Below, piece by piece: positions 22,293 through 61,755 of a stretch of 64,000 nt of DNA; position 1 is the first letter of the stretch, and each line of letters opens with the position of its first letter. A program made the translations under genes and the position numbers. Source of the stretch: a virus. Location of the stretch: the IMG/VR virus record IMGVR_UViG_3300045988_161245, positions 64,001-128,000 of that record; one strand, 5' to 3'. The notes under the pieces were generated by a model. The model had not been told where the DNA came from, ran no database searches, and worked only from the letters and a program-made list of their open reading frames with translations.

Positions 22293-22329
22293 CTACAACT
22301 CAATTTTTATTGAGTATAAAATTTTATTT

Positions 22330-22411
22330 GGATGGATAGCGAAGTGGTTAAACGCTCCTGACTGTAAATCAGGCGGCTCTGCCTTCGAAGGTTCGAATCC
22401 TTCTCCATCCA
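22330..22411 (+). tRNA. tRNA-Tyr (GTA), class II with long variable arm
   Basis: Hand-folded. GGAUGGA acceptor, UAGCGAAGUGGUUAAACGC D arm typical of bacterial tRNA-Tyr, and anticodon loop CUGUAAA. Confidence 0.9.
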
Positions 22412-22509
22412 CTAAATAGGACTACTGTCCTATTCTATTATTCTTCTCTTTTCTTTGTATTTTTCATTTTCATGATTATTTCTCCAAGCTGGGCTTCGGT
22501 CCAGCGTCT

Positions 22510-22583
22510 TGGGATGTAGCTCAGTTTGGTAGAGCGCCTGATTTGGGGTCAGGAGGTCCAGGGTTCAAGTCCCTGTATTCCAA
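22510..22583 (+). tRNA. tRNA-Pro (TGG)
   Basis: Hand-folded. D arm GCUC-AGUUUGGUA-GAGC, anticodon loop UUUGGGG, T arm CAGGG-UUCAAGU-CCCUG. Confidence 0.9.
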
Positions 22584-36456: not shown

Positions 36457-36785
36457 CGAAACACCGTTACGGAAAATTCAGTGATATGCAAATGTCGGAA
36501 ATTAAGAAGACATTACGAGGTTCTATTTTTTTCTTATTACAATGTGCAGATCCTAATACTTCAAGTAAATACCCAGGTAAAGACGTAAATGAAATATTTC
36601 AGAATATTCAGTATGATTTAGATGGATTGAACAGCTTACTCTTCTACCCTGTCGAGTTAGTTCCTGTGATTGAATTATTGGAAGCTGCCAGAGTTACATA
36701 CAATAAGCCGGATTCTAAATTTGAGGATTATAGAAAACTCATTTTGGATGCCGGTGTTGCAGTGCTTAAAATAAAGGAGGATTGA
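36453..36785 (+). CDS. putative head-tail adaptor/closure protein
   Basis: 110-aa ORF overlapping its neighbours by 4 nt. Confidence 0.4.
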   Translation: MTKHRYGKFSDMQMSEIKKTLRGSIFFLLQCADPNTSSKYPGKDVNEIFQNIQYDLDGLNSLLFYPVELVPVIELLEAARVTYNKPDSKFEDYRKLILDAGVAVLKIKED

Positions 36786-45029: not shown

Positions 45030-46721
45030 ATGCCTAATGAAGATTTTAGTATAAAAACTGGTATAGAGGTTGATGATAGTAAAGTCAGCCAATTAAAAAG
45101 TATTGCTGATGAGCTTGAAAAAACAGCGAAAGCTTTACAGAAAATTAATAACGTAAAATTTAATGGTGATATTTTCTCTGGGTTGACAAATGCAGGAAAA
45201 AATATTCAAAACGTCACTAAAGAGATTGATAAATTACAGAAGTCTGCCAATGGTGCTGGAAAACCATTAAACAACATTGGAAAAGGCGCAGAAAGTATTG
45301 TTTCAGGAAACTCAACGCAGTTTACATTATTAGATTTAACTTCTATTGATGTAATTAAATCAAGTATGAGTGAAATTGCAGACTCTGCTCAGAATCTTAA
45401 AGAAGCATTAGGATCAGAAGTTACTTCCGGATTAATGACTCAGATTGATGCTATGTTGGCGAAAAAAGATGAGTTACAAAATCTTGCGAACATTTTGAAA
45501 AGCAATAAGGAAGATTTAAATAAGGCTGCGAAAGCAACTGGAAGTAGTAATAAGAAGTCTACAAATAACACATCGTCTTCCACTTCTACTAAAACCCCAA
45601 AATATGTAACTGACCAGTCTTATGTTGGTGATTATAAGACACTTGCAGATAATGAAGCTTTTGTTCATACTCTTAGTACGTTTAGACATAATACAACAGA
45701 AGCTCAAGCCGCCATAGAAGAACGAAATAAAGTTATGGCAAGAGTAAACGCAAAAACACCACAGAACACTTCTGAAATAAATGCAAAGCAGAGATTTGAT
45801 GATATTGATAAGACTATCACAGACAATCTTAGTAAATACGGAAATCGAATTCAGAGCGCCTATGATGCTTTCGACAAGATAAAAGTAGACAAAAGTGGCA
45901 TCGCTGGAATTGAAGATGTATTTAAATCCAGTGAAGAACAGATTAATAAATGGGCTACTGCTGTCGCAAAAGGCAAAATGGGCATTAGTGAATTTGAGAA
46001 GAAAGTCGGTGGATTAAGTGGATCTGTTGGTAGTATTGGTAAAATCATTGATCCTGCAAGTATCACAGATGCAAAAATGGAATTGGAAAGTTATCTGAAA
46101 GAACTTACTAATGTACAGGATATTACTTTTAGTGGATTTACAGAAAAGAATGGAATTGTTTCGCTAAAAGGTACATTTAAGGATAGTGCCGGTGAAGCGC
46201 AGACTTTAAGTGTCCAATTAAATACACTGAATGGACAGATTAAAAATCTTGGAACTTCTGTAAAACCTGTTGAAAGTGGACTAAGTAAATTCTTCTCAGG
46301 TTGGAAAGAAAAAATGGTAAACCTTGCCCAATATTTGACTTCATTCCAGGCAATGAATCAAGTTTGGAATACGTTCAAGCAAGGTTTAGAAATAGTTAAA
46401 GAATTTGATACTGCTCTTACAGAAATGCGAAAAGTATCAGATGAGCCAATCAGTAAGCTGAAAGAATTTCAGAAGGAAAGCTTTGATATGGCTAAGAGCG
46501 TTGGTACTACTGCTCTACAGATTCAGAACAGTACCGCCGATTTCCAGAGGCTCGGAGAATCATTCTCGGATGCCAAGCAGTCAGCTGTAAATGCTAATAA
46601 ATTATTAAATGTATCAGAGTTTGATAATATTGATGATGCAACTTCTGCGCTGATTTCTATGAAAGCTGCGTATAGCGAAGTTGCAGAGTCAGATTTGGTG
46701 GATAAGGTCAACCAAGTAGGT
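45030..46721 (+). CDS. tape measure protein, exon 1 (564 codons)
   Basis: Coiled-coil N-terminal part, then the start of the TP901-type TMP core (...FQKESFDMAKSVGTTALQIQNSTADFQRLG...DKVNQVG). ORF 45030..46772 runs on into the intron. Confidence 0.7.
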
Positions 46722-46853
46722 GTCAGTATTATGCCTAAACACATGGTAACATGTGGGGTTTTACCCTGTTGATAACTATATCGGTAAACGTCTAGCGATA
46801 GATAATACCGAGGTAAGATATTTTAGAATTATATTATGATTAAAGGAGAAGTT

Positions 46854-47027
46854 ATGAAAGATAGTAAATTATATTGTTGTTTTTCAGTTCCACTCAGAGA
46901 TTATTTGATTTCAAATGGTCTTAGGTATGAGGTGTGTGCAAAAAATCCAAATACAGATAATTTGATGTGGATTTTTATTCGAACAGAAAAGCTTAATTCT
47001 CTTTTAAAGCAATGGAGTAATAAATAA
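46854..47027 (+). CDS. small DUF5659-like protein (paralog 4), intron-encoded
   Basis: AAAGGAGAAG RBS. MKDSKLYCCFSVPLRDYLISNGLRYEVCAKNPNTDNLMWIFIRTEKLNSLL. Confidence 0.55.
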   Translation: MKDSKLYCCFSVPLRDYLISNGLRYEVCAKNPNTDNLMWIFIRTEKLNSLLKQWSNK

Positions 47028-47063
47028 TATTATTAATTTTTTAATGAAAGGTATGGATTTATT

Positions 47064-48377
47064 ATGGCAAGACCATCTAATAAAAGTTTTGGAACATGGT
47101 GTGAAGAAAATAATTTAACATATATGATTGATTTATGGGATAATAAATTAAATAAATGCTCACCATATGATATTGCTATGTCAACTGCACATAAGTACTA
47201 CTTTAAATGCAATAGAGGTATTCACGAAAGTGAATTAACATCAATATGCAATATTACTGGCGAAAAGCATTATAGAGTACATTGTAGAAAGTGCAATTCA
47301 TTTGGGCAATGGTGCATTGATAATTCTAAACAAGAATTATTGAATAGGTGGGATAAAAAATTAAATAATTTGGATCCGTTTGACGTTCCATATGGTTCTG
47401 GTAAAAAATATTGGTTTACATGTCCTGTAAATAATCCTAACCACCCAAGTGAACAAAAAATGTTATCTAATGTTGTTCGTCAATCAGGTTCACAAAGATG
47501 TTTAGGATGTGAATCATTTGGACAATGGTGTATTGATAATGTGGATAAAGATTTTATGACAAAATATTGGTCCGATAAAAATACTATTAATCCATTTACA
47601 TTTACATTTCGTTCAGATAGAAAAGTATATATTAAATGCCAGAAAACATCATATCATGACGATTATCTAATTTCTTGTGCTAATTTTGTAAAAGGAAAAA
47701 GATGTTCTTATTGCACTCCTAAAGGACCTACTAAAGTACATAAGTTTGACTCTGTTGGATATAAATTCCCAGATATTTTTAAAATATGGTCAAGTAAAAA
47801 TAAGTATACTCCTTATAATTATACTTTTAGATCGAATAAAAAAGTATTATTTGATTGTCCAAAACATGGTGAATATGAACGAAAAATATGTGATATGTAT
47901 TCATCCTATTTTAAGTGTCCAATGTGCGTACAAGAAGAATCAGCTTCTAAATTACAATATAAAGTAAATTTATATTTAGAATCTCTTGGGTATAAACCTC
48001 TTCACGAACATAATTGCAATCTTCTTCCAAGAAACCCACTAACAAATGCAATTCTTCCATATGATAATGAAATACCAGAATTAAAATTAATTATTGAAGT
48101 AAATGGTATGCAACATTATGAAATAAGTCAGTTTACAGTTTTGTCATCTATGTCGTCAGGAAAAACTCCAGAAGAATGTCTTCAGTATCAAGGAGAGAAA
48201 GATGATTATAAAAGACAATATGCTATAGAGCATGGATATTATTTCTTAGAAATACCATATTTTCTTGATATTGCTTCAGAACCATATAAATATGCAATTG
48301 ATATAGCAATTGATCAATGTAAAGAAAAAATAAGAAATTCTAAAATATCAACCGTAACGACTGCAGGATGTATGTAG
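47064..48377 (+). CDS. intron-encoded homing endonuclease, zinc-ribbon repeats plus Vsr/DUF559-like PD-(D/E)xK domain
   Basis: 437 aa. Repeated W(C/D)...N...P.D......K.YWF.C zinc-ribbon modules. C-terminal core LKLIIEVNGMQHYE...DDYKRQYAIEHGYYFLEIPY. Confidence 0.6.
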   Translation: MARPSNKSFGTWCEENNLTYMIDLWDNKLNKCSPYDIAMSTAHKYYFKCNRGIHESELTSICNITGEKHYRVHCRKCNSFGQWCIDNSKQELLNRWDKKLNNLDPFDVPYGSGKKYWFTCPVNNPNHPSEQKMLSNVVRQSGSQRCLGCESFGQWCIDNVDKDFMTKYWSDKNTINPFTFTFRSDRKVYIKCQKTSYHDDYLISCANFVKGKRCSYCTPKGPTKVHKFDSVGYKFPDIFKIWSSKNKYTPYNYTFRSNKKVLFDCPKHGEYERKICDMYSSYFKCPMCVQEESASKLQYKVNLYLESLGYKPLHEHNCNLLPRNPLTNAILPYDNEIPELKLIIEVNGMQHYEISQFTVLSSMSSGKTPEECLQYQGEKDDYKRQYAIEHGYYFLEIPYFLDIASEPYKYAIDIAIDQCKEKIRNSKISTVTTAGCM

Positions 48378-48544
48378 TAATATATGTGTTGAAGTTATCC
48401 GTCCTTATATTATAAGGATGTAATATACAGTCTGAACTCACGCAATAATCTAAATTTTATGAAACGTGAGACATAGGTAGAAATGCCTATGCGCCATACT
48501 AATTTTGTGTGGTTAGTAGAGCTTGTCTCGAAAGTAACAGCTTG

Positions 48545-49321
48545 AATAATTTTTCCATCTCCACCGATGGGTTAGCATCAGCATTACAAAGATCAGCATC
48601 TGCTCTTAAAACAGCAGGTAATAATATAGACGAAAGTATAGGATTAATTACGGCAGGCAACCAGGTTGTGCAGGACCCAGAATCCGTTGGTGCCGCAATG
48701 AGAACGATTGCTCTCCGTCTAACAGGAACAAGCGTTGCCGTTCAGCAATTGCAAGAACTTGGCGAAGAGACAGATGGTGTTGTAACAACTGTTTCTAAGC
48801 TTAGAGACGTAATTATGAGCGCAACAAAAGTCGCTTCTAATGGTTTTAAAGGTATAGATATTCTTGATAATAACGGAAACTACCGTTCAACGGCAAGTGT
48901 ATTACAGGATATAGCAGATATCTATAATGAGATCGAAGAAACCGATAAAAAGACCAAAAGTAACAATGTAAATCTTTTGCTTGAAACAATTGCCGGCAAA
49001 AACCGCGCAAATACAGCTGCTAGTATATTGCAGTCACCTGATATTTTAAGGGAAGCAATCGAGTCATCAAAAAATGCGAAAGGCTCGGCAGATCGTGAAA
49101 ATGAGACGTATTTATCTTCGTTAGAAGCTCATATCACCCAACTTCAAACACAGCTCCAAGAGCTTGCAACAGTAACTATCAACTCAGATATGTTTAAAGG
49201 CGTAATAGATACAGCAACCGCCTTTCTTAACATCGTAACTCAGATCCTGGATAAACTTCCACTGCTCTCAACAGCAATTGGTGGTCTTGCAGGATTTAAA
49301 CTTTCAAAAGCAGGTCTGGGT
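48545..49321 (+). CDS. tape measure protein, exon 2 (259 codons)
   Basis: Continuation of the TMP core (NNFSISTDGLASALQRSASALKTAGNNIDESIGLITAGNQVVQDPESVGAAMRTIALRLTG...). The ORF-track entry 48509..49354 includes intron sequence at both ends. Confidence 0.65.
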
Positions 49322-49733
49322 AAACAGCTTAACATAAAGTTAGTTTCAATTTAAAATTTTATCGTAGTTAAGATGCCCATTTGATATGCTGCTGTCATAA
49401 TCGCGACAGTTAGTATAGAACTTGTTCAAGATGGTGATTCGACACCTATTGACAGACCTTTAGCCTTAGAGCTATAAAGCCGAATATCGGAGGAAGCCGT
49501 AATCCACATCACTGTGGTACCTTAGTTCTGAAAATGAATGAAAGGGATATATTGAAGATGGTAGTTCCGACACGTTAGCAAGCACATATGTTTAAATTTA
49601 CAAAAGTGGATGATAAATTCACGAATAAAACGCAATTATAAAAGGAAGAAAGAAATAGAGAGTAGAAAGTTGCAGGTAACAACTCTCCACTCTCTTAAAA
49701 GACTAAAAGGAGATTACAAAAATATGAACTAAA

Positions 49734-49907
49734 CTATTTATTATTTTGGGTGTCATCCTTATAGAATTCTCCAGACATGTCAAATCCTTTCAGGAATCCA
49801 AAATGGATGTGAAAGTTTTTCATGTTCTTAGATGGTATTCTGCGGATTAGCGACCATAGGATTAATAATCCTACAAGAGTTAAAACGAATAGAAATACAT
49901 CTTCCAT
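49734..49907 (-). CDS. small single-pass membrane protein (57 aa, below the ORF-track cutoff)
   Basis: Hand translation gives MEDVFLFVLTLVGLLILWSLIRRIPSKNMKNFHIHFGFLKGFDMSGEFYKDDTQNNK, with a GGAAGGAGGTGAG RBS. Confidence 0.55.
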   Translation of the reverse strand: MEDVFLFVLTLVGLLILWSLIRRIPSKNMKNFHIHFGFLKGFDMSGEFYKDDTQNNK

Positions 49908-50364
49908 ATCTCACCTCCTTCCTGTACGAAAGTATCAAGAAAGAGATTTGATGTTGGGAGAATCCCATAGAAATGAATATAATATTTAGAGTACTTCATT
50001 TTAGACAATCTCATTTCTGGTACAAATTGCGTACCAATAATTCAATACTACATGACGACTGTCAGATATACTGTCGTGCAACGGATCATAATGTAGAACT
50101 GTGATCACAAGTATATCTGACTTTGATTGTAGTATAATTGTCTATTTTTGTAAATCCAGAACATATGTGTTTTCATGTAAAAGTGTAGTTTTACAGTTAA
50201 CGTGCGAGAGGCTGACAAAGCATATTATATGTGGCGTTACAACATATAGTATAATATACAGTCCAACCAGGGAAAGCCTGGGTAGCATGATGGATCGAAT
50301 AGTATGGATAGAACCGTGAGGTTACTACTCGCTTACTACCTGAAATGCACTAACTGCACATATT

Positions 50365-50395
50365 CACCACGGCTTGCAAACGTGGTGTTTTTATT
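50365..50395 (+). terminator. terminator-like hairpin (caccacg...cgtggtg + TTTTTATT)
   Basis: 7-bp GC-rich stem plus a T-run. If the intron model holds, this could instead be an intron peripheral helix. Confidence 0.45.
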
Positions 50396-50424
50396 ATTTT
50401 ATTGAAAAAGAAGGTGAATATTTT

Positions 50425-50616
50425 ATGTGTGTTAAAATTTTTGATCATATTTTTTTAATAAGTAATTATGAGGTTATAGATTATTATAATAATGAAGAGG
50501 TAAATAAATTACATAGCCAAATATTACTTTCACCTCAAGATATAAAGGAGTATTTTGAATGGCTCTTTATAAAAGGTAAACATTATTTTTGCGGTCATCC
50601 AGGAGGATTATTGTGA
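50425..50616 (+). CDS. small partner protein S1 (MxVKxFD family), convergent with and overlapping the peptidase gene
   Basis: 63 aa with an AAGGTGA RBS. Paralog of 61819..62037 (MCVKIFDHIFLISNYEV vs MYVKFFDCELFIDSHEI). Confidence 0.55.
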   Translation: MCVKIFDHIFLISNYEVIDYYNNEEVNKLHSQILLSPQDIKEYFEWLFIKGKHYFCGHPGGLL

Positions 50617-51150
50617 TCTTAAAACAACTGTATTAATATTTGTATTTACATTATTATTTACTTTTGCTCTATCATTTATTATTATTTTCATATCATTAAT
50701 AATGTTAGAAAAATCTTTTTGAGTATCTACAAATAAATCAAAGTCATAATCACCTATAGCCATATAATTTATCGGTAGTAATTTACTAATACGACATTGA
50801 TGTTTTTCAGTACCTATAAGATATATTTGTGGTATTTTACACTTATTAAATCCTACAATAAGTAAATGAATTCCATCATTTGATGCATGATTTTCTTCAT
50901 AATCTTTCACTTCTTTATATACGCATTCTACATCATTTGTGTCTAATAATATTGATTTAATTTCTAAATATATTTTTAGGCAATCAAAATCATTTTTACT
51001 ACCAGCATAAGCAATAACAACTTTATCACTAATTTGATAAATCTTATTCTCGTTTTCAGTAACTATATTACTGTTTTTATCAACGATTCTGGAATCACCG
51101 CACACAATGATATCATTATCTTTAGATATTGCAGCAATAACTAGACTCAT
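50608..51150 (-). CDS. HslV/proteasome-beta-like Ntn hydrolase with N-terminal Ser (copy 1)
   Basis: 180 aa with a GGAGGT RBS. MSLVIAAISKDNDIIVCGDSRIV...NKIYQISDKVVIAYAGSKNDFD aligns by eye to HslV TTIVSVRRNGHVVIAGDGQ...[23 protein letters not shown] (nucleophile, Asp and Lys positions conserved). Confidence 0.6.
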   Translation of the reverse strand: MSLVIAAISKDNDIIVCGDSRIVDKNSNIVTENENKIYQISDKVVIAYAGSKNDFDCLKIYLEIKSILLDTNDVECVYKEVKDYEENHASNDGIHLLIVGFNKCKIPQIYLIGTEKHQCRISKLLPINYMAIGDYDFDLFVDTQKDFSNIINDMKIIINDRAKVNNNVNTNINTVVLRSQ

Positions 51151-51189
51151 GTTATACCTCCAATTTTATATTTTAAATATGTTAAAAAA

Positions 51190-51621
51190 TCATTTAAATA
51201 TTCCATTGGCAATATCGGTAATAAATTTAGGATCAGTAACAGCTACTTTAGCAACTTCTACACATACTGCTGAGATCATATTTATAGAAGAAATACCTAC
51301 AGATTTTAATTTAGCTTTACTCTTCCTCCATATAGAGTCAGGTCTAATTGATTCTGCTAATTTATGTCCTTCGAATGTAACATCATAAATTTTACAGTTT
51401 TCATATTTATAGTTATCATCTATAGAATACGATCCTTCTAAGAATCTTCCGTCAAATAAGTTTTTCACACAATATTGTACATCCTCTTCAGTGTATTTGC
51501 CTGAAAAGTGATCCTTTATATCTTTTAACATAATCCGCTTGAAATCTCCATTAAGTTTCATATTATCTTGTTCTTCAATATATAAGAGTACATCTCTAAA
51601 ACAATCATAGTTTAATATCAT
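51190..51621 (-). CDS. DUF2513-like winged-helix protein
   Basis: The ATG at 51621 has a GGAGGATTGAAT RBS. MILNYDCFRDVLLYIEEQ... and DVTFEGHKLAESIRPDSIWRKSK match the DUF2513 pattern (..iL..iEe.., LTweGHeFLd.ir...vW.k.k), recalled from memory. Confidence 0.5.
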   Translation of the reverse strand: MILNYDCFRDVLLYIEEQDNMKLNGDFKRIMLKDIKDHFSGKYTEEDVQYCVKNLFDGRFLEGSYSIDDNYKYENCKIYDVTFEGHKLAESIRPDSIWRKSKAKLKSVGISSINMISAVCVEVAKVAVTDPKFITDIANGIFK

Positions 51622-51652
51622 ATTCAATCCTCCATAGAAAGGTCGTGAAAAT

Positions 51653-51922
51653 ATGTTGTGGTCAATTTCTGAGACAGAAAATATTGCAACAAAAATTATT
51701 AAATTGTTATACGAAAATAATTGTACTGATGAAGGTGATATTGAAACCACATTTACATTAGTACGAAATCATTTTAAGAATATGTCCATTGATGACATTA
51801 TTAAATTCGAAACAACTGGTAAGATGCCGGAAATTGACGTTCATGGTAATCTTACTCAAATTATAAAACAAGTTTCTAGTCAAATAGCTGATGAGTTTTT
51901 GGAAGAACATGGTATTAAATAG
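51653..51922 (+). CDS. hypothetical acidic protein
   Basis: 89-aa ORF that fills the gap between minus-strand genes, with an AAAGG RBS. Confidence 0.45.
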   Translation: MLWSISETENIATKIIKLLYENNCTDEGDIETTFTLVRNHFKNMSIDDIIKFETTGKMPEIDVHGNLTQIIKQVSSQIADEFLEEHGIK

Positions 51923-52077
51923 GTTGTTTTCCAGGTTTCCAAGAATACCAACAAGCTGCACACCTGTTCACGGTTTTATTACTTCCTAAGAAACCAGTTA
52001 TCAACGAGTAACCACGCTGTCCGGTAGTGATCTGAGTGCTTCCACAGCGAGGACAGTGAACAGTATTGGTTTTTGTA
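51915..52077 (-). pseudogene. start-less zinc-ribbon coding remnant
   Basis: Hand translation gives ...NTVHCPRCGSTQITTGQRGYSLITGFLGSNKTVNRCAACWYSWKPGKQPI*. Resembles the C-terminus of ORF 53006..53545 (RHCPKCNGTNFTPVRKKYGLFMGFATNKVELVCNNCGY). No ATG/GTG/TTG lies between the upstream in-frame stop and the motif. Confidence 0.4.
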
Positions 52078-52764
52078 TTAATTTGTATTAGGTTTATTAT
52101 ATTTTTCTATATGTTCCTTTATTGTAGTCTTGACTAAATTATGTAATTTAATTTGATAATTAAGCAATACATTATAATTATATTTTGTTGTTGACAAAAA
52201 ATATTCCGTTATCTCTATAAATAATGAACGAAACATATCTGGTACATACTTATAACTATAAACATATTCGATATTATGCTTTTTAAGTGATGTCAAATAT
52301 CCAACACAATAATATAAAAGTCTTTCGTCACAATATACCTCACCTTTTAAAATAGGATCATTTGGTAATATAAAACTCTCAGTTAAATTTACTATTCCTT
52401 TATCTACATATTTTTTATATGAGAAATTTTCTATTTTTAAATGTATATCCATTTCAACTTCTGAAGCGTGAACTTCAGAATATATGTACATTAATTTAAT
52501 AAAATCTTCAAGCGGATAATTTAATAACTGAGTAGAATCATATACATGTGTGAACTCGTGAAAGAAAATTCCTTTGTATATTTTTGATTCATCTAATTGT
52601 TTGTTAACTTTTAGTATATATTTTTGATTATACAATTCCAATGTATTGAATTGTGCGGCTGCACAATCTCTTTTGTCAACTTCAATATATTCTTGTATTT
52701 CTGGAATTTCATAATATAACTCGTTGTATTCCTTAAATATTTTATCAAGATACTCTTTGTTCAT
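52078..52764 (-). CDS. HExxH zinc metallopeptidase (ImmA/IrrE-like?)
   Basis: The ATG at 52764 has a GGAGAT RBS. GIFFHEFTHVYD contains HExxH, with a downstream Glu-rich YSEVHASEVE. Confidence 0.5.
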   Translation of the reverse strand: MNKEYLDKIFKEYNELYYEIPEIQEYIEVDKRDCAAAQFNTLELYNQKYILKVNKQLDESKIYKGIFFHEFTHVYDSTQLLNYPLEDFIKLMYIYSEVHASEVEMDIHLKIENFSYKKYVDKGIVNLTESFILPNDPILKGEVYCDERLLYYCVGYLTSLKKHNIEYVYSYKYVPDMFRSLFIEITEYFLSTTKYNYNVLLNYQIKLHNLVKTTIKEHIEKYNKPNTN

Positions 52765-52793
52765 TTTTATCTCCTGCATAGAAAGGAATTATT

Positions 52794-53000
52794 ATGATAA
52801 AAAACAAAATGCTAATTATTAGATTAAAACGTGATATATTATATCTAAAGTTTAAGAGTTTAAAAGTAGATATTAAGTTTGCAATTAAAAAAGTATATTA
52901 TAGAATTTTCGACAGCAAAAAGTACCAAAATCTCCTACAAACTCAAAAAGATATGCAAGAGATTTTGGATGCAATTGACGACAGAATGAACTGGGTGTAG
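52794..53000 (+). CDS. hypothetical basic small protein
   Basis: 68-aa ORF that exactly fills the gap between two minus-strand genes, with an AAAGGAA RBS. Confidence 0.4.
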   Translation: MIKNKMLIIRLKRDILYLKFKSLKVDIKFAIKKVYYRIFDSKKYQNLLQTQKDMQEILDAIDDRMNWV

Positions 53001-53005
53001 TAGCT

Positions 53006-53545
53006 TTAATTTTCAGCCTTCATTCTATAACCACAGTTGTTGCACACTAACTCCACTTTATTAGTAGCAAATCCCATGAATAGTCCATATTTCTTCCTAA
53101 CCGGTGTAAAGTTGGTGCCGTTACATTTTGGACAATGACGAGTGTTAACTTCCTGCTGTTTTGCATTTTGTTGTGCTAAATATTCATTGTATCTTTTATC
53201 TAATTCTTCTTCAGCCTTGGCATTTATAATGTTCATTTGATTAGTATATTTGATGATGTCATTTGTATATAAATCGAACATTGTTGCAACAAAACCAGGA
53301 TCATTATTACCATATTCACAGAAATTAAACATATCGTTAAAACTCATATTAGGAACTGGTGTTAATTTATTTCCACATCCAGGACATAAATCTAAACTTT
53401 CACCACTAAGAATACCTGCATAATCTTTAGGTTTATTTGAACTTATTGAAAACATAGATTTTGTGCGTCCTTGTGGTTGTTTAAGTTTATTTCCACTTTT
53501 TAAAATGCATTCTCTACAATAATATATAATCTTATTAGAACTCAT
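53006..53545 (-). CDS. triple zinc-ribbon protein
   Basis: 179 aa with a GGAGGTTGG RBS. CxxC pairs at YYCRECI, CPGCGNKL and CPKCNG...CNNCGY. Confidence 0.6.
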   Translation of the reverse strand: MSSNKIIYYCRECILKSGNKLKQPQGRTKSMFSISSNKPKDYAGILSGESLDLCPGCGNKLTPVPNMSFNDMFNFCEYGNNDPGFVATMFDLYTNDIIKYTNQMNIINAKAEEELDKRYNEYLAQQNAKQQEVNTRHCPKCNGTNFTPVRKKYGLFMGFATNKVELVCNNCGYRMKAEN

Positions 53546-53610
53546 ACGCCAACCTCCAAAATATAATATTATAATGCAAGTATAACATTATATTCTCCAA
53601 TATTCAATTG

Positions 53611-56600
53611 GTCTTTAACTACGATAAAGCAACAGGAAAAGTTGGAAGTAATAAAAATAATTTAGAAAATGCATTAACAGAAGTAAAAGATTTCTTTCTA
53701 AAAAAACAGGATATAGAAAAGCCATATACACTTAGCAAAGATGAATATTCATTTTTTGAGAGAATGAAAAAAGAGCTTTCTGATTCTCAGTTAAATGGAT
53801 CTGCGGAAGATTCTAAAGATGCAATGCTACAACTGGCAGAAGAAATTACAGGTGCAGATAGCTCATTGGTCAAATATATCCAAGACACAGATGTAGCGTC
53901 TGTTTCTCAAGTCGGTTTTGCTCAATCACAAAAAACAGTAATTCAAGGAACAACTAAATTTAGTGCTGTAATGAAAACGGCCGGTGGAGTAGCAAAATCA
54001 TTTGTAGCTACCCTTGGAAGTATGGCTGTAGCCGCCGCAGCAGCTTGGGCTATCGGTAAAGTAATTGAGGGTATTGATTATCTTTATCATTACGATGAAA
54101 ATATCATCAAAGCTGGACAGGAAGCAAAGGATTCCATTGACAGTACATTTAAAAGTTTCGAAGAAGGTAAGCAGTCTATCATGGACCTTGGCTCTTCATT
54201 TGGCAATCAGACAGAGCAGATAAAAAATACCGGTGATGCAATCGATCAAGTTGCCGAAAAATATGTAGAGCTTCGTAAGGGAGTAAATCAGAATACAAAC
54301 GAGAATGTATCATTATCTACAGACGAGTATCAGCAATATATTGATCTCAGTAGTAAGCTTGCCTCTCAGTTTCCTGGTCTGGTAGCAGGTTATGATAGTC
54401 AGGGAAATGCTGTATTAAATCTTGCTTCCAATGCAGATAAGGCTGCTGATAGTATTCGTAATTTATATGAAGCACAAGTTTCTTCTGCAAATGTTGATAT
54501 GGGGAAAAATCTACAAGCAACATATGATGGTGTTGTTACACAGACAAGTCAATATGCTGAGGATATCCAGAAAAAACGTGATGAGTTAGAACAATTAGAT
54601 ACTGATATTTCTGAGAACAAACGTAGTATTTTAACATATGGAAGTAACAATTTTGAAGTACAAGGGCTGTATGGTGATAAAGAAAATGTTATTACTGATG
54701 TTCTAAAAGAGAATGGACTGTATAAAGAAAATACAGGAGATGACGGAAGTATTTGGAACTTCTATGCCGAAGGTCTCGCTGATAAGTCAAAAAAAGAAAT
54801 AGATAGGATGAATGAACAGATTACAGCTGGTTTGGAATCCTATAACTTGTCACTAGAGACTCAAAGAAGCCAACTTCAGAGTGAAATTAACTCCTACGAT
54901 TTAATGATTGAAGATCAATGGCGTAGTATGGCACAATCTCTTGGAAACTATCTTCAGACATCAAAATCATTTAATGAACTTGATGATAGTCTTCAAAGTG
55001 CATTTCTTGCCAACATTTCAAACCTTGACTTAACTGCCTTAAATGATCCAGATGGTAAATACCAAGGACAGGTGCTTGATTTCTTGTATGGAGAATTCAT
55101 TGGACCAATGTCTCGGTTTAGTGCGGATGTACAAGAAAGTCTTGCAGATGCATTACAGATTGATCCTTCTAAATTGACTATTGATGAGTATAAGTCACAA
55201 GTTGATGAAGCATTTAATAAAGCATTTCCAAAGGAAGAAGATGCAGATAAACGAGATAGATTCAAAAACGCTTATGGAATTGATTCTTCTATTGAGGATA
55301 TGGAGGATAATGCATCTCGTCTCAAAGAAGCATATGCAGATTTTCCAAATGCCAGTGATTTTATTGACCATATGCAGACAGGTGATCTGTCAATTGCTGC
55401 ACAGTTAATTGATAATGGTTCAGTTGATATTGAGAAAGGCACAGATGGATTAGTTTCTGCCATTGAAAGATATAAGAAAACGGTAGCTGAAGCAAAATCT
55501 GATACAACTCTTGCTTCTGTTCTTGGCGATTCCGATAATGAAATCTCATCTTCTATTGATTCTTTACAGTCAGATATTTCTTCTTTATCAGATACTCTTA
55601 CCAAGCTTAAAACAGGTGAGTTCAAAGATTCAGATCTCACCGACCTTATTCAACAGTTTCCACAGTTAGCCGATCAAACAGATAATCTTCAAGAAGCTAT
55701 CTCCAATCTTCAGGCAGATAAATTAAAGTCTACTTTGAAAAAAATTGACGATTCTATGGATGGAGCTTCTGATGAAGAGTTAGCTAATGCACAAAAATTA
55801 AAAGATTCTTTAATTAAGTCAGTTGACCTATCTGATATTAATTCAGACAAGATTACAGAATCAATCAAAAGTGCTTTTGAAGGTGATGGCGGAAGTAGGT
55901 ATATTGCTGCAGAACATGGAGCAAAAGCTGCTGAAGAATACAACCAAGCATTTTCAAAAGAACTTAAAAATAGTGCTGGACGAGAAGCTTTCTATAAGGC
56001 AACATTAAATCAAGATGCTGTAAAACAGGGACCTGATGCAATACGTGAATTATATAATCAGTATTTAAAGACAGCCAAAGACATCATCCAAGATACAGAT
56101 ATCCAATCACAGCTTACAAATTATCAGGATAAATACCAGTCACTCTATCAAGCTCAGAAAGATCTAAAGAACGGTCTAATGACTGGTTCTACCAAAAAGA
56201 CATTTCTGGACAAGTTTCCAGATCTTGCAAAGTATGCAGGAAACACTGAAACACTCTCTTCTGCTATTGATGATCTGATGGATTCTATGGACAGTGATGT
56301 AACTAACCAGTTTACAGATGCTATTAAAGCTCTTCAGGATGCCGGACAGTATGCAGATGCAAGTGCATTACAATCTTATGTTGAAGCTGTTTTAGATGGT
56401 GCCCATGATATCGAGGGTGCTTATCAGAAGATCGCAGGTCTTAAAATTCCTACACCTAAGTACGCAGAACTTAAAGAAGCTCTTGAATCTTCAAACGAGG
56501 GTGATCTTTACAATGAACTTCTCTCTCAGTATAAAACCGCAAAAGAGGCATGGGAAAAAGGTGAAGTTGGTACAGATGACTTTAAGTCTTTTGCTTCTAT

Positions 56601-59600
56601 TATTTCTCCTACAGGTGTATCTGATGCAGTAAACTTTGGTGAGAATCAAGCAATGTTTGAAAGATACTTCCAGGATACATCTACTGGTGTTGAGAACTTC
56701 TTAGAAGATCTACAGAAGCTTGACCTTGCTTCTAATGAAAGTGGTCATTGGACCAGTACATTAGGAAATAACCTTGATGAAATGCGAGACGCTGCACAGA
56801 GACTTAATATGGGCTTTGAACCATTTATGATGATGTTTGGTCGTCTCGAAGATTATGGTGCTACTACTGACTTCTTCACTACGGAAGAGGATGGGCAACA
56901 GCATTTATCTGATCTCTATCAGCAGATTGCAGAAAAGAAACAAAAACTTGCAGAAATTAAAGCAGATCCGGATTTAGCTGGCGATCAGTCTGCTATTGAT
57001 TCTCTCAATAAAGATTTAGATGAACTTTATGCGAGAGTAGAAAATACAAAAACTGGAATTGAAGAGCTTCCGGACAAAGCAACTTATTATGAAGCAAAGA
57101 ATCTCGAACAGGCTAAATCAGTTATCACTCAGATGCAGGACGAAATTAATCAGGCAGCTGCAGAAGGAAATGATGAATTAGTCAAAATTCTTGAAAAGAC
57201 TCGTGATCAATATTTAAAAGAAAACGGATATATTCTTAAAGAACAGCCACAAGGTCCAACTCAGCAAGGGACTATTGAAAATCCGTTAGCAAGAGAATTC
57301 ACAAATCCAACTAAATTTGGCGATTATGAGACAGTCATCAAGAAGATTCAGAATGCGACAGATGAACAGACATCTTCTCTTGAGAAAAATCTTAAAGTAT
57401 TAAGCCAATATTCTGAATCTCAGCTCAGTGGAATCAATTTATCCGATGGACAGTATGATACCGGTTTTGAGGATGCCGAACAAGCACTTGACAACCTTTC
57501 TAGCACATTTGGTCTTACAAAAGATCAAGCGGTACAGTTAGCAGCTGTTCTTTCTGATATGGGGCTGATTAAAGCAACTCCTAAAGTTGACTTAACTACA
57601 GTTCAGGATCAGATTGATAATGCAAAAGATGAGTTACAGGATAGTAATATTACTGTTGATTTAGATTTTGATATTTCTACTTCTAGTAAAGAAGAACTTC
57701 AAAAAAAGAGTCAAGAAATTCAGAATGAGCTGAATAATAACGCATCTCTTTCTGATTCTCAAAGAACATCTTTACAGGGAGTAAAAGATTCTGTTGATAA
57801 CCAGGTTGTTACGCTTACAGTACAGGAAAAAGTTGAAAAAGATGGTGATGTAGACGAGCTTCTTGCAATGGATGATCAAACACTTGCCACAACACTTGAC
57901 CTTGATGTTAATAATGCTGACCAATTATCAACAGCTAGGGATGAGCTACAATATATTAAAGACAATCAAGATGCTCAAATTGATATGACTGTTAAACTGG
58001 ATGAGACACAGTTTAATCAGCTATTAGGTGACGGTGAGAACGCTTCTATTGATGTTACAGCAAACAATGAAGAAGCAAAAGAAAAGATAGATGAAGCTAA
58101 GAACTATGCAGAAAGTCAGAAACCTCAAATGAAAATTGATGGCAACAATGATCCTGCTATCAATAAAGGTACTTCTGCTACTCAGATGATCAACAACATG
58201 ACTGGAATTATTAAGGTTAATGCTGACACATCGGGTATGGCAAGTGCTATTAATTCTGAATTGTCAAAGCCTCATACTATCAATATTTCCGCAAATGTGT
58301 CTACGCATGTTAGTGGTGGAACAGGTAAATCTACAGGAACTATGATTAGTGTCGCTCATGCCGATGGAACTGCTTATAATGTTATCAATTATACTCCTGC
58401 TCACGCAAGCGGAAATGTAACACTTTCACATGATGAAACTGCTTTAGTTAACGAAGAAGGCATTGGCGCTGAATCAATTGTGCGTGATGGTAAATGGATG
58501 ATTATTCCTGGTGGTGCCCATTTTGAAAATCTAAAAAAAGGTGACTTAATCTTCAATAAAAAGCAGACATCCGAGCTTATCAATTCAGGACATGTTACAT
58601 CTGGAGGTGGACATGCTAGAGCTTATGCAAATGGTACTGTTGGTGCTTATGCAGGAGGTAATTCTGGTGTTTATTTAAACTGGGATAAAAATCGTACTCA
58701 AGTTGGCAATCAGTCAACATCATCTCCCTCTAATTCCACAATTACCGATAAAAATACAACTTCTGTTAAGAAAAATACAGACACCGTAAATGACAATACC
58801 GAAAAGATAAAAAAATCTACTAAGGTATATGACTGGGTAGAAACTCGTATTAAGCATTGGTCTGATCAGGTTCAAAAAATCGCTGATAAAATCACCGACT
58901 ATATTAAGAAATCACTTAAAACATCTTTGCTCAAACAGCAAATTCGTAAGATGAACTATGAGATTGGTTCAAATGAAAAGGGTGCAAAAGCCTATATGAA
59001 AAAGGCTAACTCTATAGCAAACGAGTACACTTATTACAATAGTGATGGCGAAGAAATTAAAACCAATGTACCAAAGAAATATCAGAAGCTTGTCCAAACA
59101 GGTGCTTATCGTATTGAAGATATGGACACTTCAACAGATCAGGGTAAGGCTCTGGCAGAGGCTATCGATCAGTATAAGACATATTATGACAAAGCACAGG
59201 ATTGTAAACAGGCTGTTGTTGATCTGAAAAAAGAGCAGCTGGAATTGTTTGAACAGTGGGCAAATATGCCAACTGAAAAAGCAGAGCAGAAATTGGAACG
59301 TTTACAAAACGGATTTAATGGATTGAATGCAACTCAGTCAAGGTTATCTGCTGTTCAGACAGGTGGATCAACACAAAAAGCTATAGCAGACGCTGCTACT
59401 GCAAGTTACGAATCAGCACAGGTAGTTACAGAAAAAGCACAATCAAATCTTGACACAGCAACTGCGAAAGCAGATAAGGCAACTACAGCTGTAAATAGAA
59501 AGAAAAAAGCACTTCTTAAATCAAAAGGTCTTACGAATGAGCAGAAAAAAGCTATTAAATCCGGAAAGACTATTGATACCAGTAAGATTACTAACAAGAC

Positions 59601-61755
59601 TACGAAGAAACGTGCCGAAGAGTATAATTCTGCAGTTAAAAATAAAAAGAAAGCAGATTCTAAAAAGAAAACGGCTCAGACTAAATTTAACACTGCAAAT
59701 AAGAATTCTTCATCTCTTAAGACAGATGCAGAAACAGCAATCGCCGGATATCAGGAAGGAAACGAACTTTCCTATATGGATTCCTTAACTGATCAGAATG
59801 TGACACAGACAAAGCAAGCTGCAGATATTAACAACAAGGCTTGGGAGGAAACTAAGAAAAATCTTAACGCACAGGAGAAAGCCAAGAAACAAGCAGACGA
59901 TAAGGTTAGTAAAAAAGCTAAAGCTATTAAGAAAAAGTTTGGTAGTAAACTGAGTGATAATCAGAAAAAGAAATTAGCAGCAGGTAAAGAAATAAATGTC
60001 GATAAGATAAAAGACAAGTCTCTTAAAAAGGCTCTTACAGCATATAATAAATATGTTACTACTGCAGCCGAAACAGAACAGAAATTAAATATTGTCACAG
60101 ATGCAGAATCAACAGCGGCAGCTAATGCAGCGGAATCACAGACAGAAGCAGCTAAAGCCACAGTCGAAGCTATTCAAAGTAAATTTGATAATGCGAAGAC
60201 GTATTATGAAGGATTGTTAGGATATCAGGAAAAGTATAATGAAATGGAAGAAGCAAACATTGATTTATACAATGCTCATGGAAATTATGAGCGTTCTTCT
60301 GATTATGAGATTAAGATCTCAAATACTGAAAGTCTGAGAAATATTGCACAGGATAAAGTTGATGAGCTTGAGAAAAGATTTCAAGAAGGTGTTGATAATG
60401 GCACAATTGTAGAAGGATCTCAGGAATGGATTAATATGAAATCCGAGATTGTAGAAGCAAAAAAAGCTGTAACCGATTACGACACAAGTATTGAAAATCT
60501 GAAACAGCAACAAATTGGTGTTTATTATGAAGAACAGTTTGATCGTGCAATAGAGAAAATTGATCAGTTCAAGGACCGTATTGATATACTAAATGAAATC
60601 ATCTCTGATGATATGAAAGTTGATAAGAATACTGGACTACTTACAGAATTGGGAGCTACTTCTGTAATGTTGAATAGAAATCAGTTTTCTGCAAATCAGA
60701 AAGAAATACAAAAGCTTCTTGAAAAAGAAAATGATGTGAAAAAACGATACGCTAATGGCGAAGATATGTCTTCTGAATTTGGCGAAAAGACTTATGATGA
60801 ATATATAAAAGACATTCAGTCTAAATATAATTCTTTAATTTCATCAAATAGTTCTCTTCAAAATGATATGCTCTCTCTTGTCAAAAATCAGGCTCAAGCA
60901 GAACTTGATGCTCTTAATAAAGTAATATCTAAGCGTAAGGAAGCCCTTTCCGCAAAGAAAGACTATTACGATTACGATAAAACTTTAAAGGATAAGACTA
61001 AAGACATTCAGATCCTTGAACGTCAAGCGGCAGCTCTCCAGGGTTCAACAAACGCTGAAGATAAAGCACGTTTGGCAAAGATCCAGGAACAATTATCAGA
61101 TGCAAGAGAAGATCTTTCTGATACTATGACAGACCATGCTTTCAGTATGCAAAGTGATGCGCTTGATAAATTATCCTCAGATATGAGTGATGATTTTGAC
61201 AAATGGTCTAACGACATAAGCTCTAACGTAGAGAAAATGAGTAAAGCTATTAATGAAGCAGTTTCAAATTCTGCTCTTAGTAATGCGCAGGTTCTCAATA
61301 ATCTTTCTACTATTCTGAAAAATGTTGGATTAACAGATGAGCAGGTTAACTCTACATTATCAGGACTTACCGGTTATGCTTCCGGAACTGACTATGTTCC
61401 AAAATCTGGTATGTACAGAGTTAACGAAAATGGAATGGAATCTGTACTGTCAAGAAAATACGGTACTCTCACATTCTTAAATCAGGGCGATAAAGTATTT
61501 ACAGCAGACTTCACCAAGAGACTTATTGATAATGCAGGTATTGCCACACAGAGTAGTCAACCACAATTTGGCGAGATGTATAAGGAACTTATGAATGCGA
61601 TTACCAACACAAACAATCAGTCTTATGAACATAGTACAGTTTACAATATTGTTGTAAATGAAGCTACTGATGCAAACGCAGTAGGTGATATTGTCGTTAA
61701 GAAGATCGATGCATACGAAAAGAAGCGTGTAAGAGATTTTAAGAGTCTCAGATAA
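53611..61755 (+). CDS. tape measure protein, exon 3 (2714 codons)
   Basis: The giant ORF (track 53608..61755) has no RBS. It starts with a hydrophobic segment (LGSMAVAAAAAWAIG) that complements the one ending exon 2. It is dominated by coiled coil and carries a TMP C-terminal-type motif twice. Confidence 0.7.
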   Translation, partial: VFNYDKATGKVGSNKNNLENALTEVKDFFLKKQDIEKPYTLSKDEYSFFERMKKELSDSQLNGSAEDSKDAMLQLAEEITGADSSLVKYIQDTDVASVSQVGFAQSQKTVIQGTTKFSAVMKTAGGVAKSFVATLGSMAVAAAAAWAIGKVIEGIDYLYHYDENIIKAGQEAKDSIDSTFKSFEEGKQSIMDLGSSFGNQTEQIKNTGDAIDQVAEKYVELRKGVNQNTNENVSLSTDEYQQYIDLSSKLASQFPGLVAGYDSQGNAVLNLASNADKAADSIRNLYEAQVSSANVDMGKNLQATYDGVVTQTSQYAEDIQKKRDELEQLDTDISENKRSILTYGSNNFEVQGLYGDKENVITDVLKENGLYKENTGDDGSIWNFYAEGLADKSKKEIDRMNEQITAGLESYNLSLETQRSQLQSEINSYDLMIEDQWRSMAQSLGNYLQTSKSFNELDDSLQSAFLANISNLDLTALNDPDGKYQGQVLDFLYGEFIGPMSRFSADVQESLADALQIDPSKLTIDEYKSQVDEAFNKAFPKEEDADKRDRFKNAYGIDSSIEDMEDNASRLKEAYADFPNASDFIDHMQTGDLSIAAQLIDNGSVDIEKGTDGLVSAIERYKKTVAEAKSDTTLASVLGDSDNEISSSIDSLQSDISSLSDTLTKLKTGEFKDSDLTDLIQQFPQLADQTDNLQEAISNLQADKLKSTLKKIDDSMDGASDEELANAQKLKDSLIKSVDLSDINSDKITESIKSAFEGDGGSRYIAAEHGAKAAEEYNQAFSKELKNSAGREAFYKATLNQDAVKQGPDAIRELYNQYLKTAKDIIQDTDIQSQLTNYQDKYQSLYQAQKDLKNGLMTGSTKKTFLDKFPDLAKYAGNTETLSSAIDDLMDSMDSDVTNQFTDAIKALQDAGQYADASALQSYVEAVLDGAHDIEGAYQKIAGLKIPTPKYAELKEALESSNEGDLYNELLSQYKTAKEAWEKGEVGTDDFKSFASIISPTGVSDAVNFGENQAMFERYFQDTSTGVENFLEDLQKLDLASNESGHWTSTLGNNLDEMRDAAQRLNMGFEPFMMMFGRLEDYGATTDFFTTEEDGQQHLSDLYQQIAEKKQKLAEIKADPDLAGDQSAIDSLNKDLDELYARVENTKTGIEELPDKATYYEAKNLEQAKSVITQMQDEINQAAAEGNDELVKILEKTRDQYLKENGYILKEQPQGPTQQGTIENPLAREFTNPTKFGDYETVIKKIQNATDEQTSSLEKNLKVLSQYSESQLSGINLSDGQYDTGFEDAEQALDNLSSTFGLTKDQAVQLAAVLSDMGLIKATPKVDLTTVQDQIDNAKDELQDSNITVDLDFDISTSSKEELQKKSQEIQNELNNNASLSDSQRTSLQGVKDSVDNQVVTLTVQEKVEKDGDVDELLAMDDQTLATTLDLDVNNADQLSTARDELQYIKDNQDAQIDMTVKLDETQFNQLLGDGENASIDVTANNEEAKEKIDEAKNYAESQKPQMKIDGNNDPAINKGTSATQMINNMTGIIKVNADTSGMASAINSELSKPHTINISANVSTHVSGGTGKSTGTMISVAHADGTAYNVINYTPAHASGNVTLSHDETALVNEEGIGAESIVRDGKWMIIPGGAHFENLKKGDLIFNKKQTSELINSGHVTSGGGHARAYANGTVGAYAGGNSGVYLNWDKNRTQVGNQSTSSPSNSTITDKNTTSVKKNTDTVNDNTEKIKKSTKVYDWVETRIKHWSDQVQKIADKITDYIKKSLKTSLLKQQIRKMNYEIGSNEKGAKAYMKKANSIANEYTYYNSDGEEIKTNVPKKYQKLVQTGAYRIEDMDTSTDQGKALAEAIDQYKTYYDKAQDCKQAVVDLKKEQLELFEQWANMPTEKAEQKLERLQNGFNGLNATQSRLSAVQTGGSTQKAIADAATASYESAQVVTEKAQSNLDTATAKADKATTAVNRKKKALLKSKGLTNEQKKAIKSGKTIDTSKITNKTTKKRAEEYNSAVKNKKKADSKKKTAQTKFNTANKNSSSLKTDAETAIAGYQEGNELSYMDSLTDQNVTQTKQAADINNKAWEETKKNLNAQEKAKKQADDKVSKKAKAIKKKFGSKLSDNQKKKLAAGKEINVDKIKDKSLKKALTAYNKYVTTAAETEQKLNIVTDAESTAAANAAESQTEAAKATVEAIQSKFDNAKTYYEGLLGYQEKYNEMEEANIDLYNAHGNYERSSDYEIKISNTESLRNIAQDKVDELEKRFQEGVDNGTIVEGSQEWINMKSEIVEAKKAVTDYDTSIENLKQQQIGVYYEEQFDRAIEKIDQFKDRIDILNEIISDDMKVDKNTGLLTELGATSVMLNRNQFSANQKEIQKLLEKENDVKKRYANGEDMSSEFGEKTYDEYIKDIQSKYNSLISSNSSLQNDMLSLVKNQAQAELDALNKVISKRKEALSAKKDYYDYDKTLKDKTKDIQILERQAAALQGSTNAEDKARLAKIQEQLSDAREDLSDTMTDHAFSMQSDALDKLSSDMSDDFDKWSNDISSNVEKMSKAINEAVSNSALSNAQVLNNLSTILKNVGLTDEQVNSTLSGLTGYASGTDYVPKSGMYRVNENGMESVLSRKYGTLTFLNQGDKVFTADFTKRLIDNAGIATQSSQPQFGEMYKELMNAITNTNNQSYEHSTVYNIVVNEATDANAVGDIVVKKIDAYEKKRVRDFKSLR

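Follow-up and report, generated by a model that had tools for sequence, protein, structure and literature searches.

The tape-measure protein (TMP) gene in the DNA analysed here (64,000 nucleotides (nt), positions 64,001 to 128,000 of IMG/VR record IMGVR_UViG_3300045988_161245; hereafter the window) is present in three pieces, and the 4,289-nt gap between the second and the third piece (49322-53610) most likely represents, judging from sequence comparison, a self-splicing group I intron whose cargo is a variable island of genes with transcription of their own. We regard splicing of this region in cis, as one intron of 4,289 nt, as moderately probable. A group I intron had been proposed for this region in an earlier note. 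Relatives, covariation of the guide sequence and covariation of the helices support that proposal, while its assignment of one P7 strand and its placement of the island in a P9-type loop had to be revised.

The pieces of the TMP gene are as follows, in window coordinates.

45030-46721, plus strand: TMP exon 1
46722-48544, plus strand: TMP intron 1, an ordinary group I intron with an open reading frame (ORF) of 63 amino acids (aa) and a 437-aa DUF4379/HNH-like homing-endonuclease ORF
48545-49321, plus strand: TMP exon 2, 259 aa, PhageMin_Tail (PF10145 on homologues), with the 3' end ...GGUCUGGGU, in which U49321 is the 5' splice-site U
49322-53610, plus strand: the second gap, predicted intron with gene island
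53611-61755, plus strand: TMP exon 3, 2714 aa, whose initial 18 nt GUCUUUAACUACGAUAAA are the target of an extended P10

Joined, exons 1, 2 and 3 give an open frame of 3,537 aa. Both junctions of the second gap are in phase 0 and the ligated frame reads ..KAGLG|VFNYDK.., just as the earlier note had it. The predicted ligated junction 49321/53611 is GCAGGTCTGGGT|GTCTTTAACTACGA, with RTYTTT at the exon 3 side in relatives, and the predicted junction-spanning peptide of the ligated TMP is LSKAGLGVFNYDK.

Interrupted and uninterrupted relatives

Alignments with relatives indicate that exon 2 and exon 3 are parts of one ancestral TMP ORF. Comparison with relatives, which had been suggested as a check, found an uninterrupted ORF in several of them and an island in every interrupted one. 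The ORF passes the homologous point without interruption in IMG/VR relatives L018-L024, L031-L034 and L037, and exon 2 plus exon 3 align collinearly with the large TMP ORF of Clostridioides phage LIBA2945. For each of five interrupted lineages, the protein predicted after ligation matches uninterrupted TMPs in one high-scoring segment pair that spans the junction. For example, the ligated TMP of the window matches that of L021 with 40% identity (E = 3.5e-124), and the predicted ..VG|IFK.. of L027 and L017 corresponds to ..KKFGIFDT.. in the uninterrupted L024. When a junction-spanning protein was used as the query, the matches covered exon 2 or exon 3 and never both, so all close relatives carry a split gene.

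Lineages with 44-59% exon 2 identity to the window have an insert at the same phase-0 site, and intermediate lineages lack one; this patchy occupancy, as it appears from the alignments, is the pattern expected for an optional or mobile intron. Translation out of exon 2 ends 2-28 codons inside the insert, and these tails are not conserved among lineages. An early stop past the 5' splice site is typical for bacterial group I introns (PMC3984707).

The very large size of 4.3 kb for a phage intron raises the question of an assembly artefact, or of excision of the island at the DNA level before late expression, as in the skin element. No supporting point was found for either, and we consider both very improbable: the same layout is present on more than 200 independent contigs from many samples, and the island has no recombinase gene and no flanking direct repeats, nor was any empty-site DNA found. 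DNA-level excision was dropped for the lack of repeats and recombinase.

Predicted guide pairing and extended P10

The predicted pairing elements around the start of the insert are as follows.

49317-49379, plus strand: P1, exon UGGGU (49317-21) with guide GCCCA (49375-79), with a U.G pair at the splice site
53 nt inside P1, plus strand: loop L1, with an in-frame stop at 49352-54
49358-49374, plus strand: 5' strand of the extended P10, UUUAUCGUAGUUAAGAU, pairing with 53611-28 (about 18 bp, one bulged U)

In the guide AAGAU|GCCCA (49370-79), AAGAU pairs with the exon 3 start GUCUU (53611-15) and GCCCA with UGGGU, and G53610, the omega-G, stands just ahead of exon 3. All coordinates that the earlier note had given for this P1/P10 geometry (TGGGT 49317-21, AAGAT-GCCCA 49370-79, G53610 and GTCTT 53611-15) are correct, and the geometry recurs in at least four other lineages. 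P1 of the form UGGGU/GCCCA is invariant in 6 relatives, and P1 helices of other sequence are present in L011, L017, L027 and L035. Window-type relatives have AUCUU or AUUUU at the start of exon 3, with the pairing to AAGAU retained. The guide is AGCAGA|GGAUA in L011, versus UAUCU and G|UCUGCU; GAAUAU|GCCGACA in L027 and L035, versus UGUCGGU and G|AUAUUC; and GAAUAU|GCCUAC in L017, versus GUAGGU and G|AUAUUC. L025 and L030 have GCUUAC versus GUAAGC with a P1 that is not clear-cut, and the guide of L029 is degenerate. In the lineages compared, the P10 pairing always begins at nt 1 of exon 3 and abuts the P1 segment, and a G occupies the omega position in 12 of 13 distinct junction types. This covariation of the guide across lineages is the strongest comparative evidence for the intron.

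The length of the P1 loop had been listed as a caveat; the 53-nt loop is real and was found to hold an extended binding site for exon 3. In a repeat search, 49358-71 (TTTATCGTAGTTAA) in L1 proved to be the exact reverse complement (14/14) of 53615-28, which are nt 5-18 of exon 3, and this 14-mer turns up nowhere else in 64 kb (expected 0.05). The extended P10 reaches -18.1 kcal/mol, compared with -6.2 +/- 2.3 in shuffles (0/300), and -24.1 kcal/mol in L015. P10 in L011, L025 and L027 is stronger than most shuffles, its length in other lineages is 6-11 bp, and intron 1 has a P10 of only about 5 bp without extension. Moreover, synonymous changes are absent from the first 18 nt of exon 3 across window-type lineages, in which the codons that follow diverge. 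The extended P10 accounts for the long P1 loop and for how a splice site at a distance of 4.3 kb could be chosen. A local hairpin in the P1 loop, CUUAAC/GUUAAG, competes with it, which suggests that a switch might be set off by the 3' exon.

A variant of the P10 target was seen at L074 2223-2245, where exon 3 starts with AUCUUUGGCUACGAUAAA. With the AA-to-GG change in the target, pairing with guide UU would be kept as G.U; the 5' element is absent from this contig.

Predicted ribozyme features at the 5' end of the insert

Past exon 2, the first 1.07 kb shows 97-100% conservation in relatives with an exon 2 protein identity of only about 90%, and a hairpin at 50365-87 marks the exact point where this conservation ends. 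The core comes in two halves, the 5' half at 49322-49580 and the 3' half at 50196-50281, separated by an insertion of about 616 nt in which the 57-aa antisense ORF lies.

49391-96/49405-10, plus strand: P2, 3 compensatory pairs versus L015
49433-36/49443-46, plus strand: P2.1-like hairpin, 1 compensatory pair versus L015
49480-90 and 49504-17, plus strand: hairpins of the 5' half
49571-79, plus strand: candidate P6 5' strand
49657-49925, minus strand: antisense cassette in the ribozyme region, with a 57-aa hydrophobic ORF (49734-49907), its own ribosome-binding site (RBS) and a strong minus-strand terminator (49695-49657)
50196-204, plus strand: candidate P6', pairing with 49571-79
50210-14/50259-63, plus strand: P7, GGCUG with CAGUC, preceded by J6/7 CGAGAG; G.U becomes A-U in L015 (GACUG)
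50222-32/50242-52, plus strand: P8, 2 compensatory pairs
ahead of the P7 3' strand, plus strand: J8/7 AAUAUA, which like J6/7 resembles the RF00028 consensus
50267-71/50277-81, plus strand: P9, CCAGG-GAAAG-CCTGG, 2 compensatory changes in L015
50282-50395, plus strand: conserved post-P9 tail, ending in hairpin 50365-71/50381-87 and a U-run

L015 is a moderately diverged copy and served for the formal covariation test. Of 67 proposed pairs, 99% are paired in the comparison, with 9 compensatory double changes; shuffles give 1.6 +/- 1.2 and none of 500 reaches the observed 9, while the paired fraction in slid controls falls to 26-42%. P2, the P2.1-like hairpin, P8, P9 and the terminal hairpin are supported by covariation, and so is P7. 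The P9 hairpin, which the earlier note had spelled ccaggg-aaag-cctggg, is present at 50267-81. The same note took GACTGT at 50057 for the 5' strand of P7. This assignment was ruled out, as the word varies without compensation, and GGCUG at 50210-14 takes its place. An alternative P3 (49383-90 with 50219-26) was likewise ruled out, by the covariation in the long P8 hairpin.

Core motifs can also be read in other lineages. L011 has AAAUGCUGGGAAA (J3/4-P4), CAGAGACUAC (J6/7-P7), AAUGUAUAGUCC (J8/7-P7') and a P9 hairpin within about 400 nt, and L025 has the same J3/4-P4, J6/7-P7 and J8/7-P7' motifs with a compensatory P7 change (GACUC/GAGUC). The J6/7-P7 and J8/7-P7' motifs in L011 and L025 are CAGAGACUA/CAGAGACUC and AAUGUAUAGUCC/AAUGUAGAGUCC, and by their sequence the core motifs of both lineages read as textbook. 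P7 is AGCGaCA/UGCGCU in L027 and AGUGaCA/UGCAUU in L029, and both share the P9 loop ACUUAUC of L011.

The 57-aa ORF of the antisense cassette is present as a divergent allele in L005, L006 and L015, and its predicted product may function as a small membrane protein or resemble a type I toxin.

The gene island and the 3' end of the predicted intron

Downstream of the conserved region, the insert consists of an island of accessory genes and a short 3' end.

50396-53545, both strands: accessory-gene island, with gene content varying between relatives
50425-50616, plus strand: ORF of 63 aa
50608-51150, minus strand: proteasome-like gene, 180 aa
51190-51750, minus strand: DUF2513 gene
51653-51922, plus strand: ORF of 89 aa
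52078-52779, minus strand: ORF of 233 aa
52794-53000, plus strand: ORF of 68 aa
53006-53545, minus strand: double zinc (Zn)-ribbon gene, 179 aa
53546-53610, plus strand: 3' end of the intron with omega-G 53610; the Zn-ribbon gene has its RBS and its promoter, TTGAAT-17-TATACT (53607-53579), on the minus strand here

With four solid minus-strand and three small plus-strand genes, the island agrees with the earlier description of a mostly antisense multi-gene cargo. Its genes have their own promoters and RBSs, and about three quarters of the coding sequence is antisense. The earlier note expected this cargo in a P9-type loop; no demonstrably closed loop is present, and the island occupies the 3' tail, downstream of the P9-region hairpins and upstream of omega-G.

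In every interrupted lineage, 2.3-7 kb separate the core from omega-G, and no compact intron was found. The minimal island set comprises an approximately 65-aa plus-strand gene, the proteasome-like gene and the Zn-ribbon gene, and islands elsewhere hold further genes: DUF2513, aspartic-protease-like, NsnA/GmrSD-like (L027, L030) and HD-domain genes. The proteasome/HslV-like gene is present in most examined islands, and a second copy lies downstream of TMP at L007 9325-9885.

The double C4 Zn-ribbon protein has invariant CxxC...CxxC and CPxCGS...CxxCG motifs and is homologous across most interrupted lineages. Wherever the homologue is carried, its gene is antisense and adjoins the 3' splice site, and its promoter occupies the last 60 nt of the intron. 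The protein has no match to any known family and is a candidate splicing or mobility factor. No homing endonuclease of the LAGLIDADG, GIY-YIG, HNH or His-Cys families was found in the island of the window.

Splicing in cis and its alternatives

Several observations weigh against a cis-spliced group I intron, and they fall on the core, on the path from the core to exon 3 and on the start of exon 3. In the core, P3, P4 and P5 have no confident assignment in the window, and candidate P6 shows one supporting and one disruptive change in L015. L025 has A instead of G ahead of exon 3, and exon 2 of L029 ends in C, so that its P1 has no U.G pair. A search with RF00028, suggested in the earlier note, gave no matches in the window or in relatives: none at E <= 10 on window 46600-53800, window 50192-50300 and L011 3050-3620, none at E <= 1 on L026 and L028, and none at the gathering score on five loci. 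RF00028 does detect two other introns in the window, yet it misses the clear intron 1 of TMP. Because that clear-cut intron is also missed, RF00028 is insensitive to this subtype and to large insertions, and its failure as a membership test for a group I intron has limited weight.

Between core and island, a hairpin with a U-run (50365-95) sits on the sense strand. The earlier note had called it terminator-like, and the hairpin at 50365-87 followed by a U-run is indeed present; it is either a peripheral helix or an intrinsic terminator, and could stop sense transcripts. The hairpin has 1 compensatory pair in L004, lacks the U-run in L015 and has no equivalent in L011. Furthermore, the promoters of the island face inward, so a sense transcript would meet converging polymerases. 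No significant helix that closes the island was found: in 7 lineages, the 5' element and the final 60 nt of the intron form no duplex better than those of shuffles. The loop GCUUGCA (50372-78) may contact UGCAAGU (53575-81) in the window, and GUUUGA/UCAAAC is a candidate contact in the L027 group, but these pairings are short and overlap minus-strand promoter elements.

These properties also bear on a two-piece, trans-splicing intron, in which an RNA with exon 1, exon 2 and the ribozyme would end at 50365-95, exon 3 would be transcribed from a promoter near or inside the Zn-ribbon gene, and the 18-bp guide, perhaps with the loop contact 50372-78/53575-81, would join the two RNAs. Such an arrangement would explain why the terminator-like hairpin stands exactly where conservation stops, why the entire core is upstream of an island with converging promoters and no closing helix, and why an 18-bp P10 far exceeds the need of a cis intron and is like the extended guides of engineered trans-splicing ribozymes (PMC3895272). 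However, no exon 3 promoter was identified and a promoter scan was not enriched over shuffles, L015 and L011 have no U-run after the corresponding hairpin, and a P10 of only 6-11 bp in other lineages is weak for associating separate RNAs. In addition, no terminator separates the 63-aa plus-strand gene from the converging minus-strand gene that it overlaps, and sense transcription into the island is apparently tolerated. We consider trans-splicing unlikely, and splicing in cis, with read-through of the hairpin, the more probable course.

A somewhat wider proposal, possible though doubtful, is a ribozyme that is activated by the 3' exon or is truly in two pieces. The core would remain inactive, its P1 loop closed by CUUAAC/GUUAAG, until that loop is invaded by the first 18 nt of exon 3, transcribed 4 kb later or present on another RNA, which would complete the active site.

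The start of exon 3 leads to the question whether splicing takes place at all. Without it, two polypeptides would be made, one from exons 1 and 2 ending in KQLNIKLVSI and the other from exon 3 starting at TTG53608, and the ribozyme-like RNA would be an intron relic or a regulator in the 3' untranslated region that pairs with the start of exon 3. A TTG or ATG does abut exon 3 in 10 of 13 distinct junctions (TTG53608 in the window), its G being omega-G, and L025, which has lost omega-G, has an in-frame GTG two codons upstream of exon 3. Such codons may mean a back-up start or a lineage-specific switch to independent translation of exon 3, and TTG53608 may serve as a start in the window. Gene callers always give two proteins. 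The exact spliced or intron-less junction has no match in JGI metagenomes and IMG/VR, and no spanning protein was found in the protein collection; the L027-type junction 17-mer gave 35 matches, all by chance and none in a TMP gene. The negative RF00028 result fits two separate proteins as well.

The translation signals of exon 3 are nevertheless incomplete. The earlier note held that exon 3 has no RBS of its own, and no Shine-Dalgarno sequence precedes 53608 in the window or exon 3 in any lineage, though neighbouring genes carry GGAGG. It also named a start codon together with an RBS as the sign of an independent downstream gene; the start codon is found in the 10 junction types mentioned above and the RBS in none. 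L017 and L030 have no start codon for the conserved N-terminal codons: in L017 the codon UCG precedes exon 3, and none of ATG, GTG and TTG occurs over 138 conserved codons, and L030 has none in the first 48 codons of exon 3. Moreover, a relic would not keep P1 and P10 matched to differing exons in five lineages, nor nine compensatory pairs, and a regulatory role leaves the U.G pair of P1, the exact adjacency of guide and P1 and the G before exon 3 unexplained. From the above, two unspliced products seem improbable. An intein was dropped, as no intein motifs are present, and so was translational bypass, for which a 4.3-kb gap is too long; to our knowledge, bypass distances are far below 4.3 kb.

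The preferred cis-splicing of 49322-53610 may proceed as follows. The ribozyme would be formed at the 5' end of the insert by P1, P2 and the 5' core (49317-49580), a gene-holding loop, and P6'-P7-P8-P9 with peripheral hairpins (50196-50395), and the remaining 3.2 kb up to omega-G53610 would be the gene island. Late transcription would run across the region, the U.G pair in P1 would set the 5' splice site, and the 18-bp pairing of the P1 loop with nt 1-18 of exon 3, together with omega-G, would draw the distant 3' splice site to the core. Exons 2 and 3 would then be ligated in frame and, with exon 1, encode a single TMP of 3,537 aa.

Genomic setting and other interruptions

The window comes from a large siphovirus with a YomU-type tube gene. 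Its TMP has distant similarity to those of Enterocloster, Clostridioides, Brevibacillus and SPbeta-like phages, and no close phage relatives were found in GenBank by megablast. In the host and prophage search, the sole genome match was one Kineothrix metagenome-assembled genome, whose TMP is also interrupted.

Intron 1 of TMP has the pairings P1 UAGGU/GCCUA and P3 GAUAAC/GUUAUC. Its site holds a LAGLIDADG ORF in L011 and is empty in several relatives. In the Clostridioides phage LIBA2945 (L010 8717-9040), the TMP annotation consists of two coding sequences, 'ATPase' and 'hypothetical protein'. The 320-nt gap between them coincides with the site of intron 1 and is probably an unannotated intron in a GenBank phage. 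In L007 (and L008), a relative with 78% identity, exon 3 has an extra gap of about 300 nt at L007 2787-3090, with in-frame pieces of 619 and 1987 aa on its two sides; a further intron is probable here. The TMP family appears to be a hot spot for introns. In L012 (11361-18907), exon 3 ends after 471 aa and is followed by TniQ/TniB/TnsB-like genes, which reflects either insertion of a Tn7-like element into TMP or a chimera made in assembly.

Elsewhere in the window, two RF00028 group I introns are arranged in tandem at 37354-37660 and 37700-37987 (82 and 72 bits) with a 39-nt mini-exon between them, in a structural gene (ORFs 36782-37462 and 37983-38750). Four tRNA genes are present, one at 15597-15670 and three clustered at 22204-22583.

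Significance and comparison with known systems

Phage group I introns are usually viewed as small and as carrying at most one homing endonuclease. If the insert is spliced, the intron would be both a vehicle and a safe harbour for a rapidly changing, two-strand multi-gene island inside an essential structural gene, and its very long P10-type guide would be a natural way to select a 3' splice site kilobases away or on another RNA, which bears on ribozyme engineering. The interrupted layout is present on hundreds of metagenomic contigs of Lachnospiraceae-associated phages, and, given splicing, many 'split' TMP genes of gut phages would be mis-annotated as two or three proteins. It would also be a system for testing the temporal separation of cargo transcription and host-gene splicing. 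If the ribozyme is activated by the 3' exon or is in two pieces, it would be without precedent as a natural trans-splicing or long-range-gated group I intron of a bacterial virus, and the site of the island would be protected, with imprecise deletion of the island destroying an essential gene.

The earlier note judged an intron with multi-gene cargo to be highly unusual, and the literature that we searched describes neither a group I intron of a phage or bacterium with a multi-gene, largely antisense, variable island or a P10 of about 18 bp, nor a trans-spliced one in these hosts.

Mechanistically, the closest known system by analogy would be the T4 nrdD (sunY) intron, whose core, as Michel et al. 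reportedly described in Genes Dev in 1992, is activated by the remote 3' splice junction. This intron is also mentioned in the source that we used for the defining features of group I introns (PMC3984707). As in T4, the core is at the 5' side, the cargo is downstream and the 3' splice site is remote, and pairings at the 3' junction matter for activity in T4. However, the T4 intron is about 1 kb long with one homing endonuclease on the sense strand and a P10 of a few bp, whereas the introns considered here have 2.7-7.6 kb and a changing set of 3-12 genes that are mostly antisense and have promoters of their own, and the P10 of the window has 18 bp.

Group I introns are known in phage structural genes including TMP, e.g. 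in cluster J mycobacteriophages (PMC3706429). With ordinary phage introns, intron 1 among them, the insert shares a conserved phase-0 site in an essential late gene, the U.G pair of P1, omega-G, an early in-frame stop and a patchy distribution. Ordinary phage introns differ in carrying no ORF or one homing endonuclease in a loop and in having a short P10, whereas the island of the window has no recognised endonuclease and the element is RF00028 negative.

Natural trans-spliced group I introns exist in organelles, such as those of placozoan and lycophyte cox1, and trans-splicing ribozymes with extended guide sequences have been engineered (PMC3895272). In these as in the window, a long duplex of guide and exon offsets the distance of the ribozyme from its substrate exon. 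Unlike the halves of trans-spliced introns, which are known to be separate transcripts, both parts here are on one strand, 3-6 kb apart.

Independently transcribed or non-endonuclease cargo has precedents in nuclear rDNA introns with antisense or promoter-bearing endonuclease genes, in twin-ribozyme introns and in fungal mitochondrial introns with rps3 or several ORFs. Those introns hold one or two cargo genes and no fast-changing defence-type island. The island itself is more like phage morons, with variable genes between conserved flanks, own promoters and defence-like genes (the NsnA/GmrSD-like genes of L027 and L030). Known moron hot spots are intergenic, whereas this island lies inside an essential coding sequence, where it would be harmless only through RNA splicing.

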